DNA of 63,650 nucleotides from Phycisphaerae bacterium. Its GTDB lineage: Bacteria > Planctomycetota > Phycisphaerae > UBA1845. This document shows positions 7,476 through 54,061 of the stretch, one piece after another. The notes beneath the pieces were generated by a model. The model searched no databases. It saw nothing but the letters and a program-made list of their open reading frames with translations, and had not been told where the DNA came from. The stretch's first letter is position 1. Every line of letters begins with the position of its first letter. Both the position numbers and the translations under genes were made by a program. The DNA is taken from assembly GCA_040235375.1 (NCBI GenBank), contig JBECKQ010000254.1:1-63650 (forward strand), read 5' to 3'.

Positions 7476-9764
7476 ATGCGGATGGTGGCAGTGTCGCCGA
7501 CAGGCACTTCTCGTCGAATGTGGCTCGTCCTTTCGCTGGTATTCTGCCTGACCGGCATTGCCGCCGTGCCGACACGGGCGGCCGATCCGGCTATATGTCT
7601 CGACGCCAAAGCCGAGCAGCGAATCGACGCGCTGCTGGCGAAGATGACACTCGAAGAGAAACTTGGGCAGTTGACGCAGCAGACCGGCCCGGGCGAGAAC
7701 TACAACCCGGACGCGCCCAACCAGAAGGATCGGGATCTCTTCGGCGCCGTGCGCGCCGGCAAGCTCGGTTCCGTGCTCAACGCGCACGGCGCCGAGCTCA
7801 CCAACAAGCTGCAGAGCGAGGCCGTCGAGCGTTCGCGGTTGGGCATTCCCGTGCTCTTTGGCAACGACGTGATCCACGGATACCGCACGATTTTCCCGAT
7901 TCCTCTCGGCGAAGCGGCCACCTGGGACCCGGCGCTGATCGAGAAGTCGGCGATCGTCGCCGCGACGGAAGCGGGGGCCGCCGGCACGCGTTGGACCTTC
8001 GCCCCCATGGTGGACATCTGCCGCGACGGCCGGTGGGGTCGCGTCGCGGAAGGCGCCGGCGAAGATCCCTTCCTGGGCTCGGTGATCGCGGCGGCACGCG
8101 TCCGCGGATTTCAGAAAGGCAACCCGGCCGCCCATGATGCCCTGGTGGCATGCGCCAAGCACTTTGCAGCCTACGGCGCCCCGGAGGGCGGGCGGGACTA
8201 CAACACTGTCGATCTCTCCGAGCAGCGGCTGCGCGAGGTGTACCTGCCGCCGTTCAAGGCCGCAGTTGACGCCGGCGTCGGCACGCTGATGAGCGCGTTC
8301 AACGACATCGACGGCGTGCCCGCTACCGCCAACCCGCTTACACTTCGCCACGTCCTCCGCGAGGAATGGGGTTTCCGCGGATTCGTCGTCAGCGACTGGT
8401 GCTCCATCACCGAGATGGTCGCCCACGGCTACGCGACCGATGACGGCGACGCCGCCGTCAAGGCGATCCTCGCCGGCGTGGACATGGACATGTCGTCGTT
8501 TTCCTATCGAACGCACTTGGGCGATGCGGTCATGGCCGGCATCGTATCCGAGCAGACCATCGACGAGGCCGTACGGCGCGTGCTGCGAATCAAGACGCTG
8601 GCCGGCCTGTTCGACGACCCGTACGTCGACCCGGCGTTGGAGAAGAAGGTCATCCTTTGCGACGAGAATCGCCGTGCTGCTCGCGATGTGGCCCGGCACT
8701 CGATTGTGCTGGCGAAAAACGAAGGCGCCGTACTGCCTATAGGCGAGCGTGTGAAGTCGATCGCCGTGATCGGCCCGCTTGCGGACAACCACGAGGCGCC
8801 GCTCGGCACGTGGTCGCTGATCGGCAGGTCTCAAGACGTGATCAGCGCGCTCGAGGGGATCAGGAAGCGGGCCGGATCGCAGTGCGAAGTCCGCTACGCG
8901 AAAGGCTGCGAAGTCCTGGGCGGCGACGACAAGGGAATCACCGGGGCCGCGGCGCTCGCCAAAGACTGCGACATGGCGATCGTGGTCGTTGGCGAGAGTG
9001 CGGACATGAGCGGCGAGGCCCACTCGCGTGCCGGCCTGGACCTGCCCGGCCGGCAGCTCGATCTGGTCAAGGCGGTTCGCGCCACCGGTGTGCCGATGGC
9101 CGTCGTGCTGATGAATGGCCGGCCGATGTCGATTTCCTGGACGGCCGAGAACGTTCCCGCCATCCTCATCGCCTGGCATCTGGGCGTCGAGTGCGGTCCG
9201 GCCATCGCCGACGTGCTCTTCGGCGACTTCAACCCCAGCGGCAAGCTGCCGATCACGTTCCCCCGATCGGTCGGCCAGGTGCCGATCTACTACAACCACA
9301 CGAACACAGGCCGTCCGCCGACGGACAAGCGCTATACGTCCAAGTATATCGATCTGCCCTGGACGCCGCTGTACCCGTTCGGATACGGCCTGAGCTACAC
9401 GCAGTTCGAGTTCTCCGACCTGGTGGTCACGCCGCAGCAAATCGGTCCGGCCGGCAGCGTGAAAGTCAGCGCGAAGGTTCGAAACACCGGCTCGCGCGCC
9501 GGCGACGAGATCGCCCAGCTTTACATCCGCGACCTGGTCGCCAGTCGAGTCCGGCCGGTCAAGGAGCTGCGCGGCTTCCAGCGCGTATCGCTCGAGCCGG
9601 GTGAGACAAAGGATGTCACTTTTACATTGACGCCGGAGAGCCTGGGCTTCTACAACAGCGACATGCAATTCGTCGTCGAGCCGGGCGAGTTTGCGGTCTG
9701 GATCGGACCGAACTCGGCGGACGGCATCGAGGGACGATTCCAGGTCAGCAGCGAGGCGGACTGA
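7476..9764 (+). CDS. bglX: Periplasmic beta-glucosidase, GH3 family
   Basis: 762 aa with a signal peptide. GH3 nucleophile region 'GFRGFVVSDWCSI', plus 'KHFAAYGAPEGGRDYN' and a C-terminal FnIII-like tail. Confidence 0.9.
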   Translation: MRMVAVSPTGTSRRMWLVLSLVFCLTGIAAVPTRAADPAICLDAKAEQRIDALLAKMTLEEKLGQLTQQTGPGENYNPDAPNQKDRDLFGAVRAGKLGSVLNAHGAELTNKLQSEAVERSRLGIPVLFGNDVIHGYRTIFPIPLGEAATWDPALIEKSAIVAATEAGAAGTRWTFAPMVDICRDGRWGRVAEGAGEDPFLGSVIAAARVRGFQKGNPAAHDALVACAKHFAAYGAPEGGRDYNTVDLSEQRLREVYLPPFKAAVDAGVGTLMSAFNDIDGVPATANPLTLRHVLREEWGFRGFVVSDWCSITEMVAHGYATDDGDAAVKAILAGVDMDMSSFSYRTHLGDAVMAGIVSEQTIDEAVRRVLRIKTLAGLFDDPYVDPALEKKVILCDENRRAARDVARHSIVLAKNEGAVLPIGERVKSIAVIGPLADNHEAPLGTWSLIGRSQDVISALEGIRKRAGSQCEVRYAKGCEVLGGDDKGITGAAALAKDCDMAIVVVGESADMSGEAHSRAGLDLPGRQLDLVKAVRATGVPMAVVLMNGRPMSISWTAENVPAILIAWHLGVECGPAIADVLFGDFNPSGKLPITFPRSVGQVPIYYNHTNTGRPPTDKRYTSKYIDLPWTPLYPFGYGLSYTQFEFSDLVVTPQQIGPAGSVKVSAKVRNTGSRAGDEIAQLYIRDLVASRVRPVKELRGFQRVSLEPGETKDVTFTLTPESLGFYNSDMQFVVEPGEFAVWIGPNSADGIEGRFQVSSEAD

Positions 9765-46726: not shown

Positions 46727-47599
46727 ATGCCCGCAAAGAAGCGAACCAACCGGCTCCATCTTCTCCTGATGACGGCAGCCATCGCGGCCATCGTGCTCCC
46801 CGTTGGCTGCGGCCCCGCTCCGGTGAACCTGTTCAACCAGGCGAAGCCGGCGACGCCCGCGCAGCCGGCGTACGACGACAAGGACTGGGCGGCGGTGCTG
46901 CGCGAGAACGTACGCGATCGTCTCGTCGATTACCGGCATCTGGCCGAGCATCGCGAGCCGCTCGACGCGTATCTTCGCCAAGTCGAAATGGTCGGGCCCA
47001 AGTCCACACCGGGTCTGTTCGGCGAGCCGCAGGCGCCGCTGGCGTACTATCTCAACGTCTACAACGCCTGCGTTCTCAAGGCGGTGCTGGCGGCCGGTAT
47101 CCCGCCGACCATGCATGACGTGCACGGCGTGTCTCTCGATTACGGCTACCGCTTTCGCGTCGAAGGACAGATCGTGACGTTGGCGCAAATCCGCGAAATG
47201 GCGCGCGAGGCGAGTGTTGGCAACGCCCGATTCGAGCTGGCGTTGTGCGACGCGGCGATCGGATCGCCGCCGATTCCCGCCGAACCGTTCCGCCCGTACA
47301 ACGTAGACGAGCATCTGCAGCGTATCGCCCGCGAGGCGATCGACGATCCGAACCTGGTGCGCGTCGATCACGAGCATCAGCGGTTGCTCGTCGGCCTGCC
47401 GATCTGGTCGCATCGCGAGGAGTTCCTCGCGATGTACTGCCGCGAGACTGGGAGCAGCAGCGCGACGATGCTGAACGTGCTGATGCATCTGGCCAGCGGC
47501 ATCCGTCGGCAGTATCTCAGTCGGGCGTCCGGCTACGACGTTCGTTTGCTTCCGTTTGATCGCCGACTCAACATCTGGCAGGCGGCCTCGGGCGGCTGA
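46727..47599 (+). CDS. DUF547 domain lipoprotein
   Basis: Lipobox 'AIVLPVGCG' and 'AYYLNVYNACVLKAVL'. It starts 3 nt after the DUF1015 stop. Confidence 0.8.
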   Translation: MPAKKRTNRLHLLLMTAAIAAIVLPVGCGPAPVNLFNQAKPATPAQPAYDDKDWAAVLRENVRDRLVDYRHLAEHREPLDAYLRQVEMVGPKSTPGLFGEPQAPLAYYLNVYNACVLKAVLAAGIPPTMHDVHGVSLDYGYRFRVEGQIVTLAQIREMAREASVGNARFELALCDAAIGSPPIPAEPFRPYNVDEHLQRIAREAIDDPNLVRVDHEHQRLLVGLPIWSHREEFLAMYCRETGSSSATMLNVLMHLASGIRRQYLSRASGYDVRLLPFDRRLNIWQAASGG

Positions 47600-47663
47600 T
47601 CGCGGTGCCGCCGGTCGCGGCTTTCGAATTGGAAACGCACCCGCGCGGGGGATAAGCTTTTCT

Positions 47664-48140
47664 GTGCTGCTCTATCTGTTTTTGCTGTTCACGATCCTGC
47701 CGATCCTCGAAATCTGGGTCTTGCTCCAGATCGGGCACGTCATTCACGTCGGTCCGACGATCGGCCTGATCCTTTTCACCGGAGTCGTCGGGGCGGCCCT
47801 GGCACGGCGGGAGGGACTGCGCACGTTGAGCCGCATTCGCGAGAACCTGTCGCAGGGGGTCATGCCTACGAGCGAGTTGGTGGATGGCATGCTGATCTTT
47901 CTGGCGGGCGCGTTGCTCGTGACGCCGGGCGTCATCACCGATGCGTTCGGGTTTCTGCTTCTGATTCCCTTCTTGCGCCGCTGGTTTCGGCGGCAACTGT
48001 CGGATTACTTCAAGCGCAGAATCGTCGTGGTCGGGCCGGCCGGTTCGCCGTTCGAGCACGAGGTCATCGACGTGGAAGCGCGCGACGTGACCGACCAACC
48101 GGCGGACACGAAGCGGGATTACGGTCACCTCGAAGACTAG
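47664..48140 (+). CDS. fxsA: FxsA family membrane protein
   Basis: GTG at 47664 with GGGGGA upstream. 'ILPILEIWVLLQIG' and 'LLVTPGVITDAFGFLLLIP'. Confidence 0.8.
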   Translation: MLLYLFLLFTILPILEIWVLLQIGHVIHVGPTIGLILFTGVVGAALARREGLRTLSRIRENLSQGVMPTSELVDGMLIFLAGALLVTPGVITDAFGFLLLIPFLRRWFRRQLSDYFKRRIVVVGPAGSPFEHEVIDVEARDVTDQPADTKRDYGHLED

Positions 48141-48162
48141 GCGGCGGGCCGTCTAGGCGCGC

Positions 48163-48200
48163 AAAAAAGGCGTGACCGACAAACCGACTCGGTTGCGCCC
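48163..48200 (-). terminator. Rho-independent terminator oriented on the minus strand
   Basis: The minus strand reads GGCG-CA-ACCGA-(9-nt loop)-UCGGU-CA-CGCC followed by UUUUUU (complement of the A6 run at 48163-48168). On the plus strand the T-run is missing. Confidence 0.45.
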
Positions 48201-49400
48201 TTCAGAGTATTCGGATCCAGTTGCTCGCGAAAACCCGTCGCCGGGAAGCCGCGTCCTCTCCTGGAATTAGCCTGTCGTCCAGAGTCTTAACAGCCGTCGC
48301 GTATCGCGTGTATTGGTTCGCGAAACCACTTCGCCGTCGGCCGTTTCCTCGGCCCTGTGGCATTCCGACGGCGGCTGCCGGTTGAGCCCCGGTTAAAGAA
48401 CTCAACTCGTCCTCTCTTCGACTTCGGCTTTCCTCCAGAGTCTTCAACAACCAGTCCTAGTCCGCCGAACCGCGTGGCGATTACGGCAAACTCCTCTCAT
48501 GGGCTTTCGTTCCCTTCAGCACGTTCCGGCGATGAGGGTCCACTTCCCGCGGGGATGCCGACCCCGCTACGTTCCGCCTTCAGGGTTTGATTACCCTCTT
48601 GGCGGTTTACTCCCCTCAAAGCTTGGCCGGGCTTGTTTCGTCCCGGCAGCGCTCCTGGGATTCTCCCCTTCGAAGCGCCTCGCGAAAGGTGGCTGCCGTC
48701 TTTCGACGACCGCTGGACCTGCTTGCCGTTAGCCCAGCACGATTTCCCGCAACTGCTAACAGCTACGAGCCGGTGCACTGGACACCGACTTCCAGGCTTT
48801 GACCCTTTCGCGAGTTCCAGAGCCGCCCGAAGCGGGTTAGGCCTCGACCAACCTGAAAGCTCCCTTGGGGTTTCCCCCTTCCAGGGCAAACCACCGAGCG
48901 CCTTGAACGGGTTTCCACCCGCTCTCCCCTTACGCGCTTCGCGGAATGCAGCAGCGCCAACTGCAGCAGCGCTACGCCCTAGGGTTTCAATCAGCGTCCG
49001 GCTGGCATGCACTCACCGTTATCAGCGAGCCAACGACGGCAAGAGCACACAACCCTCTTAAGGTTTCCGTGCCAGTTTCATCCGAATCGTTGGAGGCGCC
49101 GACGATCGTGGCTTATGAATTCGCCTCACAGCCGGCCAGCCGTTACCGGCCGATCCAACCTGATCTTCTGATCGCCTGAAAAGCGCCTCGGCCGGAGCCG
49201 AATCGGATCAACCTGAGGCACCCGAGTCGCAATGGCTTATCGGCCACGCATCCAGATTTTACGCCGCAATCGGCCGGTCGCAAACGACGCGCGTCGGGTC
49301 TGCGGATATCACAGACCTGAAAGCAAACCGATTCGCACTTTGCGGCACGCGCAGCACATCGCGTCTCGGGCAATCCCCTACGGCAGGGCGCGATTAACTT
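48163..49400 (-). ncRNA. Candidate large structured non-coding RNA, family unknown (5' end undefined; may extend to about 49650)
   Basis: There is no credible ORF. The minus-strand sense is purine-rich. Many perfect hairpins are capped GAAA/GGAA/GCGA/UCCG on the minus strand, and G.U pairs appear only in the minus-strand reading. A terminator sits at the 3' end. Confidence 0.35.
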
Positions 49401-49821
49401 TTTTTCAGGGATCTTCGCTCATCGAGAAATCACAAGACGACCCATTTTGACACCGTTATCCGACGGTGGATCAGTCGTCTGTTAGCAACGCTGGCTCGCG
49501 CCTGTAACTGACTCAAACACAGCGGTTTGGGACCGTGCCTCGCCGTCACGGCCATCGCAGACGCGTACACGCCGCGATTGACCTTAATCACACGGCAGGC
49601 TCTAATGCCGCTCGCGCGCCTGCCGCAATGCTGGGTGCGTAAGGTCACCTTAATCCTCGCAGGAGCATGGCATGACGTTCATCGTCCAGGGGTTATTGTT
49701 GCTGTGGGTCCTTTTGGGCTTGTCGTGGATCGTGGCGCACGCATAGCTCGAGCGCAACGACGGTTCGGACGCTCGGGTATCGCCCCGGCGGCACCGCCCT
49801 CCCTCGCAGAACGCAGGATTT

Positions 49822-51009
49822 ATGACCGACAATGAGAGGCAACCGGCCTCGCGGCCCTGCCTGATCGCGGATCGGGTTCGCAACATCCGCCAGACGGCGC
49901 TCCGGCGGATCAGTGCTCGCTGCGCCGAGGTGGGTGGCATCAACCTGTCCCAGGGCGTCTGTGACCTGCCCGCGCCCGAGGCCGTCAAAGCCGCAGCCAG
50001 CAAAGCGATCGACGACGACCACGCGATCTACACGAACCTGGCCGGTGTGGCGAAGCTTCGCCGGGCCATTGCCGAGAAAATGCGGTCGTTCAATGGAATC
50101 GACATCGATCCGCAGACACAGCTGGCGGTTACGGTGGGGGCGGCGGGCGCGTTTGCGTGCGTCGTGAATGCGACGCTCAATCCCGGCGACCAGGTCGTCG
50201 TCTTCTCGCCGTTCTACAACTACTACGTTGACGTGCTCACGCTCGTGGGAGCGAGTATCCGGTTTGTGCACACGCGCCCGCCGGTCTGGGCGTACGACGA
50301 TCGCGCACTGGCCACGGCCTTTACCGACCGGACGCGCATGGTGCTGATTAACACGCCGGCGAATCCAACGGGCAAGGTCTTCACTCCGGACGAGTTAGCG
50401 CAAATCGCGGCCCTCGCCGAACGCCACCACGCGCTGATCGTTACCGACGAGGTGTACGAATACATCACCTACGAGACCCCGCATACGAGCATCGCCGCGC
50501 TGCCGCAGGCCGCCGGGCGGACGCTCACCATGAGCAGCGGGTCGAAGACGTATGCCGTCACCGGCTGGCGGGTCGGCTATGTGGCGGGGCCGGCCGAGAT
50601 CATCGAGAAGATCCTCGTCGTGAGCGATCTCTACTACATCTGCGCCCCCGCGCCGCTTCAGCACGGACTGCTTGCGGGGCTGGCGTTGCCACCAGCGTAC
50701 TACGACGAACTCCGGGCCGACTACCGGGCAAAGCGGGACATGCTCGCGGACGCTTTGCGCGATGTGGCCTTCCAGCCGTTCGTACCGCAGGGGGCTTTCT
50801 ACATGATGGCCGACTTCGGAGCGGGCCGCTGGCCGAATGCCATCGCCGCGGCGGAGTCGATCCTCGAGAGCGTGGGGGTGGCCAGCGTTCCCGGAGCCCC
50901 GTTCTATGCCGACCCCGTCGAAGGAGAGACCCAACTGCGATTCTGCTTTGCGAAGCGCACGGCCGACCTCGAGGAGGCTTGCCGCCGGCTTCGGCACCTC
51001 GCCCGCTGA
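49822..51009 (+). CDS. PLP-dependent aminotransferase, class I/II
   Basis: 'SSGSKTYAVTGWRVGY' (Schiff-base Lys motif), 'INLSQGVCDLP' and 'LINTPANPTGKVF'. Confidence 0.9.
   Translation: MTDNERQPASRPCLIADRVRNIRQTALRRISARCAEVGGINLSQGVCDLPAPEAVKAAASKAIDDDHAIYTNLAGVAKLRRAIAEKMRSFNGIDIDPQTQLAVTVGAAGAFACVVNATLNPGDQVVVFSPFYNYYVDVLTLVGASIRFVHTRPPVWAYDDRALATAFTDRTRMVLINTPANPTGKVFTPDELAQIAALAERHHALIVTDEVYEYITYETPHTSIAALPQAAGRTLTMSSGSKTYAVTGWRVGYVAGPAEIIEKILVVSDLYYICAPAPLQHGLLAGLALPPAYYDELRADYRAKRDMLADALRDVAFQPFVPQGAFYMMADFGAGRWPNAIAAAESILESVGVASVPGAPFYADPVEGETQLRFCFAKRTADLEEACRRLRHLAR

Positions 51010-53987: not shown

Positions 53988-54061
<74 letters not shown>

Follow-up and report, generated by a model that had tools for sequence, protein, structure and literature searches.

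The minus strand of positions 48165–49249 in a 63,650-nucleotide (nt) stretch of Phycisphaerae DNA (contig JBECKQ010000254.1; the whole stretch is called the window below) encodes a non-coding RNA of ~1,085 nt as a gene in its own right. The gene lies between fxsA (47556–48140; Pfam FxsA) and a class I/II aminotransferase gene (49822–51009), in a 1.68-kb (1,681-nt) gap of which it fills 1,085 nt; the remainder holds two promoters and a small conserved open reading frame (ORF). The RNA is a member of a large family matching no Rfam 15 model, and we are highly confident that it represents a real, new, structured RNA gene. The original prediction, made by a model from the sequence alone, had read the entire gap as a structured RNA on the minus strand. 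Strand and structure stand, while the extent contracts to 48165–49249; the strings, coordinates and counts that it quoted were all recovered in the sequence.

Sixty-eight loci around relatives of the aminotransferase were fetched and searched for homology to window positions 48150–49414. Three of them hold homologous DNA: L002, a Phycisphaerales metagenome-assembled genome with the RNA in the same position upstream of the aminotransferase gene (E = 1e-111); L011, labelled ‘Planctomycetales’, with the RNA ~5 kb from that gene; and L016, labelled ‘Deltaproteobacteria bacterium UBA6601’, in which only the 3′ two-thirds of the RNA matches. A four-way alignment showed invariant blocks between helices with obvious compensatory changes, and a T-run at a shared 3′ position. 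A search pattern built from three invariant blocks in arm D (see below), AGGCGGAACG..GTGGAC..GCTGAAGGG, has a single match in the window and is found in at least 120 contigs from metagenomes, with zero matches in 2.9 million viral contigs. More than 120 homologues were found, and the family belongs mainly to Phycisphaerae and other Planctomycetota. Structure analysis used 81 homologues, each <90% identical to the others, whose median pairwise identity of 71% indicates that the sequences come from many organisms. An nhmmer profile of these 81 sequences matches the window at 49222–48192 (E = 6e-191), in a single copy.

The consensus fold of the 81 homologues contains 301 base pairs in 51 helices. 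Across this fold, 91.5% of sequence-by-pair cells are canonical, compared with 36–43% when the 3′ partner is slid by 1–3 columns, and 222 of the 301 pairs show compensatory changes, with at least two sequences changed on both sides. A second count for arms C and D in a 40-sequence alignment (A4) gave 101 pairs, 66 with both-side changes versus 33–39 after sliding; 94.4% were paired versus 34–47%, the covariation score was 0.363 versus 0.05–0.10, and none of 500 shuffles reached any observed measure. G·U pairs account for 9.9% of paired cells family-wide, with 35 in the window, indicating that the minus strand is the RNA strand; the original prediction had argued for this strand from such pairs, and the promoter and U-tract described below agree with it. 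About 250 alignment columns are near-invariant. Sequence conservation and massive covariation among relatives thus bear out the proposed structured RNA.

The minimum free energy of 48150–49420 is −582 kcal/mol on the minus strand versus −471 kcal/mol on the plus strand. In 300-nt windows compared with dinucleotide shuffles, the minus strand gave z = −2.7 to −5.2 over 48441–49340, whereas the plus strand lay between +0.1 and −1.7 and flanking coding DNA near zero; folding therefore beats shuffled controls on the minus strand only. A purine-rich minus-strand transcript had also been predicted. The direction is right (56% purines), although the skew is modest; the plus-strand composition of 48621–48680 (T16 A4 C22 G18) was recounted as given, and GAAA is indeed about twice as frequent on the minus strand (13 versus 7 occurrences).

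Pfam returned no family for ten ORFs of the gap on both strands (E up to 0.1). One of these, a 171-aa ORF previously described as lacking a recognisable domain, has no Pfam match, and a protein search with it found 12 ‘hypothetical proteins’ only, domain-free and all on contigs of 0.9–1.1 kb. The contig L189, one of those returned by this protein search, is 93% identical to the window; the 69 substitutions between the two are split 26/23/20 over the codon phases, and single-nucleotide indels separate homologues in the four-way alignment. Stop-free stretches opposite the RNA strand reach a median of 198 aa because the complement is pyrimidine-rich. A decayed gene or an antisense ORF was rejected on these grounds: there is no Pfam match, no real protein homologue and no codon periodicity. 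The matching ‘hypothetical proteins’ (P0001–P0012, 100–190 aa) are spurious gene-caller annotations on putative transcripts of the RNA, and a protein search with such spurious ORFs is a usable route to further homologues.

Rfam 15 at gathering score identified only a tRNA and a 16S rRNA in the whole window, both outside the RNA (tRNA at 53988–54061, 16S rRNA gene from 63261), and only a 5S rRNA elsewhere in nine homologous loci. Relaxed scans returned four noise matches of 12–18 bits for 48000–49950 (E up to 10) and four unrelated, non-recurring noise matches for 12 homologues (E up to 5). No Rfam family was found across 21 homologues, including the OLE, GOLLD, ROOL, HEARO, raiA and T-large models, and no RNase P, tmRNA, 6S, SRP, group I/II intron or rRNA model matches the RNA. 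These scans agree with the original prediction, which had recognised no known RNA core. A group II intron or retroelement was rejected, with no intron model match and no reverse transcriptase among the neighbours. Searches of phage, plasmid and viral sequence collections gave no match, and a full-text literature search for it found no description.

Architecture of the RNA

The terminal helix encloses five multi-helix arms (A to E) around one central junction, and the linkers between arms are short and A-rich, ending in AA. The gene and its parts are as follows.

48165–49249, minus strand: large structured RNA gene, ~1,085 nt, from +1 near 49249 to the U-tract (profile match, homology and covariation)
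49256–49283, minus strand: sigma-70-type promoter from a consensus scan, −35 TTGCGA (49283–49278), 16-nt spacer, −10 TAAAAT (49261–49256)
49240–49249, minus strand: 5′ strand of helix P0 (GCGUGGCCGA), pairing with 48170–48179
49222–49229, minus strand: 5′ strand of helix P1 (CGACUCGG), pairing with 48185–48192, a perfect 8 bp in the window
49069–49221, minus strand: arm A, eight helices, most with compensatory changes; variable, and missing from the short form
48876–49063, minus strand: arm B, closer CCUU-AAG-AGGGU ... GCCCU-GGA-AGGG; inner helices covary
48664–48870, minus strand: arm C, closer CCCC-AAG-GGAGC ... GCUUC-GAA-GGGG; A4 helices 1–10
48511–48660, minus strand: arm D, closer UCCC-AGG-AGCGC ... 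GUGCU-GAA-GGGA; A4 helices 11–17
48197–48504, minus strand: arm E, the largest, closer GCCC-AUG-AGAGG ... CUCU-GAA-GGGC; 15 helices, most covarying
48185–48192, minus strand: 3′ strand of P1 (CCGAGUCG), from the consensus helix and the window duplex
48170–48179, minus strand: 3′ strand of P0 (UCGGUCACGC), from the window duplex and by analogy with ..CCUCACGUCGC in other loci
48163–48168, minus strand: U6 tract (transcription stop), directly after the terminal helix and followed by GCGCGC; read from the sequence

Arms B to E share a common closure, in which a CCC/GGG helix of 3–4 bp leads through a symmetric 3×3 loop to a helix of ~5 bp. The loop (5′-A-N-G / 5′-G-A-A) is read as stacked A·A, N·A and G·G. 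The closing pair of arm B (175/353) is UA in 59 sequences and CG in 16, and pair 361/564 of arm C is AU in 40 and GC in 22; A4 helices 1–10 of arm C are 85–100% paired, nearly all of them changed on both sides. The strongest non-Watson–Crick covariation in the RNA consists of A·A↔G·G and G·A↔A·G exchanges within internal loops. Arm E, a nested run of 4-bp helices separated by 3×3 purine loops, shows A·A↔G·G covariation at 784/960, 810/933 and 865/887. These exchanges suggest that the arm-base loop is a conserved three-dimensional motif. Conservation is highest in arm D, where 54% of columns are at least 95% conserved, many of them unpaired, and which contains the invariant blocks AGGCGGAACGUAGC, GUGGAC and GCUGAAGGG; the corresponding figure for arm A is 18%.

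The original prediction had described a chain of local hairpins with stable tetraloops. All seven helices that it quoted are present as strings, yet three are replaced in the family by long-range pairings. The GGGG-GAAA-CCCC hairpin (48867–48878) has AC, GA or UU as flanking pairs in the family, and long-range closures covary instead; the bases of the outer stem CGCCGUC/GACGGCG (48332–48373) pair long-range, and CGGC-UCCG-GCCG is mostly replaced by covarying long-range pairings. Local tetraloop hairpins as the main architecture are thus rejected in part, since covariation favours the long-range closures. A mutual-information scan for pseudoknots or kissing loops gave only weak candidates (586/887, 103/384 and 455/698). 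Profile-versus-arm searches for duplication among arms B to E found nothing significant beyond the closers, and the RNA contains no tandem repeats.

A short-form subfamily of ~700 nt consists of arms C to E only (L016 279–963, L104 1403–2087, L103, L157, L087 and L183). Its member in the genome labelled Deltaproteobacteria bacterium UBA6601 adjoins a Ser/Thr kinase gene. The contigs L085 (2,005 nt) and L163 (3,755 nt) each bear at least two copies of the RNA in tandem, with ~72% identity between copies, and L163 has internal repeats of ~200 nt at 640–1450; there are paralogous arrays or arm expansions in some organisms.

Gene boundaries, transcripts and neighbouring genes

Two lines of evidence place the probable ends of the RNA: a promoter and terminator arrangement conserved among loci, and the points at which transcript-like contigs begin and stop. 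For gene anatomy, ten genomic loci were aligned on a GGCACC anchor. They share a promoter with a −35 of TTTGCC or TTGAC, a 17-nt spacer and a −10 of TAnAnT, often preceded by TG, and ~7 nt past the −10 comes TGCGACGnnGAGG, the 5′ strand of the terminal helix. This promoter layout, followed by TGCGACG, stands at an equal distance from the RNA in L093, L107, L108, L137, L142, L147, L074, L195 and L097. The equivalents of P0 covary across loci (5′ strand GCGACGnnGAGG, 3′ strand CCUCnCGUCGC), and P1 (columns 13–18/1027–1032) is 90% canonical with four of six pairs covarying; in the window, the duplex of the two RNA ends has an energy of −47.2 kcal/mol. A U6–7 tract with GCGCGC occupies the same place in the window, L093, L107, L108, L142, L180 and L195, and a looser version is seen in L137, L147, L074 and L097. 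In the window (48169–48157) and at the matching place in those six relatives, the stop region reads GC-rich, U6–7, GCGCGC in that order. Promoter, terminal stem at +1 and U-tract are kept in at least ten genomic loci, and, judging by the sequence layout, one helix appears to mark both ends of transcription, which would begin at its 5′ strand and stop at its 3′ strand. The minus-strand reading had been predicted to end in a hairpin plus U6 (48163–48200). The U6 is confirmed, whereas the supposed hairpin belongs to the terminal helix, as its 3′ strand, and pairs with the 5′ end of the RNA.

Most contigs matching the three-block pattern are 1,020–1,060 nt long, and the profile spans them end to end with 15–30 nt left over. 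Those shorter than 1.2 kb number 77, with a median length of 1,039 nt; 71 of the 77 begin 11–19 nt ahead of the conserved GGCACC, and most stop 15–31 nt past the conserved CUCUGAAGGG. L189 lies entirely within 49164–48203 of the window. Because these endpoints are shared across many species, and inter-strain tangles in DNA assemblies would not produce them, the short contigs look like whole assembled transcripts. If they are, the RNA would be very abundant and stable.

All but one of the 77 short contigs are linear with fixed ends. The exception, L112 (1,193 nt), carries an exact 123-nt direct repeat at both ends, giving a unit length of 1,070 nt, a pattern that a de Bruijn assembly yields for identical tandem copies and that a circular molecule would also give; at its junction, a small capping hairpin links the two strands of the terminal helix, 3′ to 5′. 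A circular RNA was rejected, as L112 alone behaves in this way and tandem paralogues like those of L085 and L163 are the simpler reading. A viroid-like or Obelisk-type circular replicon was also discarded: the RNA lies in chromosomal contigs with a promoter and a terminator, and the contigs are linear with fixed ends.

The only recurrent neighbour of the RNA gene encodes a PIN and PhoH protein (PhoH2); other neighbours vary. PhoH2 lies directly upstream on the same strand, 270–700 nt away, with the RNA keeping its own promoter, in L074, L093, L108, L137 and L180, loci selected by the RNA, and in L195 and L196–198, selected by PhoH2. The PhoH2 relatives used as starting points were all from Phycisphaerae or Planctomycetota. 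Roughly half of the independent genomic loci have PhoH2 in this position close upstream. The link is far above chance. It is not obligatory: the RNA occurs without a nearby PhoH2 gene, and PhoH2 occurs without adjacent RNA.

On its other side, the gap of the window contains three further features.

49284–49414, minus strand: region upstream of the RNA gene, conserved with L002 only (alignments A1 and A3; two sequences)
49578–49606, plus strand: promoter of the aminotransferase operon, TTGACC-17-TCTAAT, conserved in L002
49672–49746, plus strand: small hydrophobic ORF (MTFIVQGLLLLWVLLGLSWIVAHA), 24 codons with AGGAG upstream; start conserved in L002 (MKFLLQGLL...)

The blocks GCAAAGUGCGA and CUGUGAU in 49284–49414 are possible regulatory or transcription-factor sites, and the 24-codon ORF probably encodes a small membrane protein co-transcribed with the aminotransferase. 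A 9-mer (ACCTTAATC, at 49581 and 49647) with an 8-bp helix in 49580–49660 had been assigned to the RNA. The sequences exist as described, but they belong to the plus-strand promoter region, and the 9-mer repeat overlaps the −35 element of that promoter. Linkage to the aminotransferase, which the original prediction had proposed to compare among relatives, is kept in L002 and looser in L011 and L016. An obligatory link was rejected, with the RNA present in only 3 of the 68 aminotransferase loci; among the Planctomycetota-type loci, 10 of 13 lack it. L011 also carries a solitary 5S rRNA gene (9306–9411, plus strand) at a distance of ~2.6 kb from the RNA; the locus gave no 23S match.

Possible roles of the RNA

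We infer that the RNA acts in trans, and our preferred reading, with a probability of roughly 35–40%, is that it provides a ribonucleoprotein with its structural core. Arm D, which is near-invariant, and the arm E junctions would constitute the functional centre, and the four repeated arm-base loops may either dock copies of one protein or make tertiary contacts that lock the hub. A candidate partner would be the hexameric PIN–PhoH (PhoH2) RNA helicase and nuclease, which leads the field because its gene often lies directly upstream. Several points weigh against this proposal. The RNA is not beside PhoH2 in four PhoH2-selected lineages (RAS1, L194, L199/200 and L201/202), for which reason the linkage may be inherited gene order within one class, and none of the window's 63 kb encodes PhoH2. 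The repeated loops may serve architecture alone. The short contigs are read as transcripts from their coincident ends, and would come from metatranscriptomes. Finally, projecting the consensus onto the window sequence leaves 16% of its pairs non-canonical, in part through alignment error in variable hairpins.

Dispensing with protein altogether, the RNA may fold alone and perhaps self-assemble into a particle or cage, with its loops and A-rich linkers as tertiary or quaternary contacts. Cryo-electron microscopy has shown that ROOL, GOLLD and OLE form protein-free large particles or cages. Size, ~50 helices and lack of coding capacity resemble these ‘ornate’ RNAs (PMC12286853), a hub-and-arm layout with a repeated motif suits symmetric packing, and no neighbouring protein gene is obligatory. 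We nevertheless consider this unlikely: the RNA resembles none of ROOL, GOLLD and OLE in sequence or by model, shows no detected kissing-loop or pseudoknot covariation, and is absent from the phage, plasmid and viral collections, whereas ROOL and GOLLD are often phage-carried.

The PhoH2 linkage also fits a decoy, sponge or RNA antitoxin that sequesters an RNA-binding protein, with PIN–PhoH as the candidate, at the repeated motifs. In mycobacteria the antitoxin is a protein, PhoAT, whose part a decoy RNA would play. The order PhoH2-then-RNA on the same strand recurs in seven independent lineages, the arm-base motif recurs four or more times, and the inferred abundance is high; PhoH2 itself is reported to combine a hexameric RNA helicase with a fused PIN RNase and to show toxin–antitoxin-like behaviour (PMC7390352). 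Set against this, the RNA has its own promoter and also occurs without a nearby PhoH2 gene. The CsrB and ToxI sponges consist of simple short repeats, while this RNA has no tandem repeats and its arms share no sequence homology beyond the closers; membership of that sponge class was rejected for the same reasons. Extreme conservation and 300 covarying pairs are more than a decoy needs, and such a role seems distinctly improbable to us.

Our expectation is equally low for a large ribozyme whose active site, for example for RNA processing or ligation, would be made of near-invariant nucleotides in the junctions and loops of arms D and E. The level of conservation in arm D and its many unpaired positions are like those of RNase P RNA and group II intron cores, the closed terminal helix and compact multi-arm fold would suit catalysis, and the terminal repeat of L112 is what a circular or tandem molecule would give. 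However, the RNA resembles no ribozyme model, no substrate is evident, and nearly all contigs are linear with ends matching the promoter and terminator, which argues against general self-cleavage or circularisation.

It is very unlikely that the RNA is a cis-acting or antisense element, whether as a leader, in the manner of a riboswitch, or by regulating the aminotransferase or fxsA divergently. The same aminotransferase family does lie near the RNA in the window, L002, L011 and L016, but these loci were retrieved via the aminotransferase, which biases the association, and the 10 Planctomycetota-type aminotransferase loci without the RNA speak against it. Moreover, a promoter and a terminator of its own delimit the RNA gene; in the window fxsA is convergent, so that the RNA strand has no gene downstream; and the neighbours vary widely among loci. 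It is scarcely credible that the locus is the remnant of a protein gene or mobile element, or a spacer without function: the long stop-free stretches that favour it are accounted for by the pyrimidine-rich complement, and massive RNA covariation, the even codon-phase spread, single-nucleotide indels, the lack of any but spurious protein matches, and a single copy in the window with none in phages, plasmids or viral contigs all oppose it. Cis-regulatory, pseudogene and artefact readings are thus essentially excluded.

Beyond a ribonucleoprotein core, we tentatively raise a bolder and less probable version, that the RNA is a new class of bacterial RNA machine. It would be the largest highly structured non-ribosomal bacterial RNA, with housekeeping expression across Phycisphaerae and other Planctomycetota (and a short form in a genome labelled Deltaproteobacteria), and its arm D core would be catalytic or ribosome-like, perhaps working with PIN–PhoH, rather than a mere scaffold. 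Large structured bacterial RNA classes are few: rRNAs, RNase P RNA, tmRNA, group I/II introns, OLE, GOLLD, ROOL and HEARO. To our knowledge, almost every one turned out to be a ribozyme, a ribonucleoprotein core or an RNA assembly without precedent. A new class exceeding 1 kb, with ~50 covariation-supported helices and ~250 near-invariant columns, would be a major addition to this list, and its apparently very high expression and more than 100 diverse public members would add to the interest. The system is also tractable, with an alignment deep enough for R-scape and for three-dimensional modelling or cryo-electron microscopy, clear gene boundaries and a candidate partner in PhoH2, the biology of which is itself poorly understood. 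In addition, environmental RNA assemblies appear to hold whole unannotated RNAs that gene callers mislabel as hypothetical proteins.

Comparison with known large RNAs

We regard the RNA as a new class that differs from OLE, GOLLD and ROOL in size, phylum, genomic setting and architecture. OLE, GOLLD and ROOL have lengths of roughly 600, 800 and 580 nt, respectively, and the present RNA, at ~1,040–1,090 nt, is longer than any of them. Like them, it is a stand-alone, very large bacterial non-coding RNA with dozens of covarying helices (PMC12286853), has conserved unpaired nucleotides, is restricted by lineage or environment, and has a function that is not evident from sequence. Unlike them, it has no covariance-model match, belongs to Planctomycetota, is chromosomal rather than phage-associated, and follows a hub-and-five-arm plan with a repeated A·A / N·A / G·G loop.

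The pairing of 5′ and 3′ ends in a long terminal helix is shared with RNase P RNA, 6S RNA, SRP RNA and rRNA processing stems. The RNA also resembles housekeeping RNAs in having its own strong-looking promoter and a comparable inferred abundance. It differs from them in lacking sequence or model similarity and in being two to three times the length of RNase P RNA. Its terminal helix, unlike theirs, starts at +1 and ends at the U-tract, so little or no processing seems to be needed.

As in CsrB/RsmZ and ToxI, a short structural motif recurs within one RNA, and a nuclease gene is often adjacent. In contrast to those RNAs, the motif is an internal loop at helix bases instead of a GGA hairpin loop or a tandem unit, and the rest of the molecule is unique, complex and highly conserved. 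Comparative rRNA analysis has documented A·A, A·G and G·G purine pairs at helix ends, together with non-canonical covariation. The A·A↔G·G and G·A↔A·G exchanges at the internal loops of this RNA are of that type, a likeness at the level of sequence.

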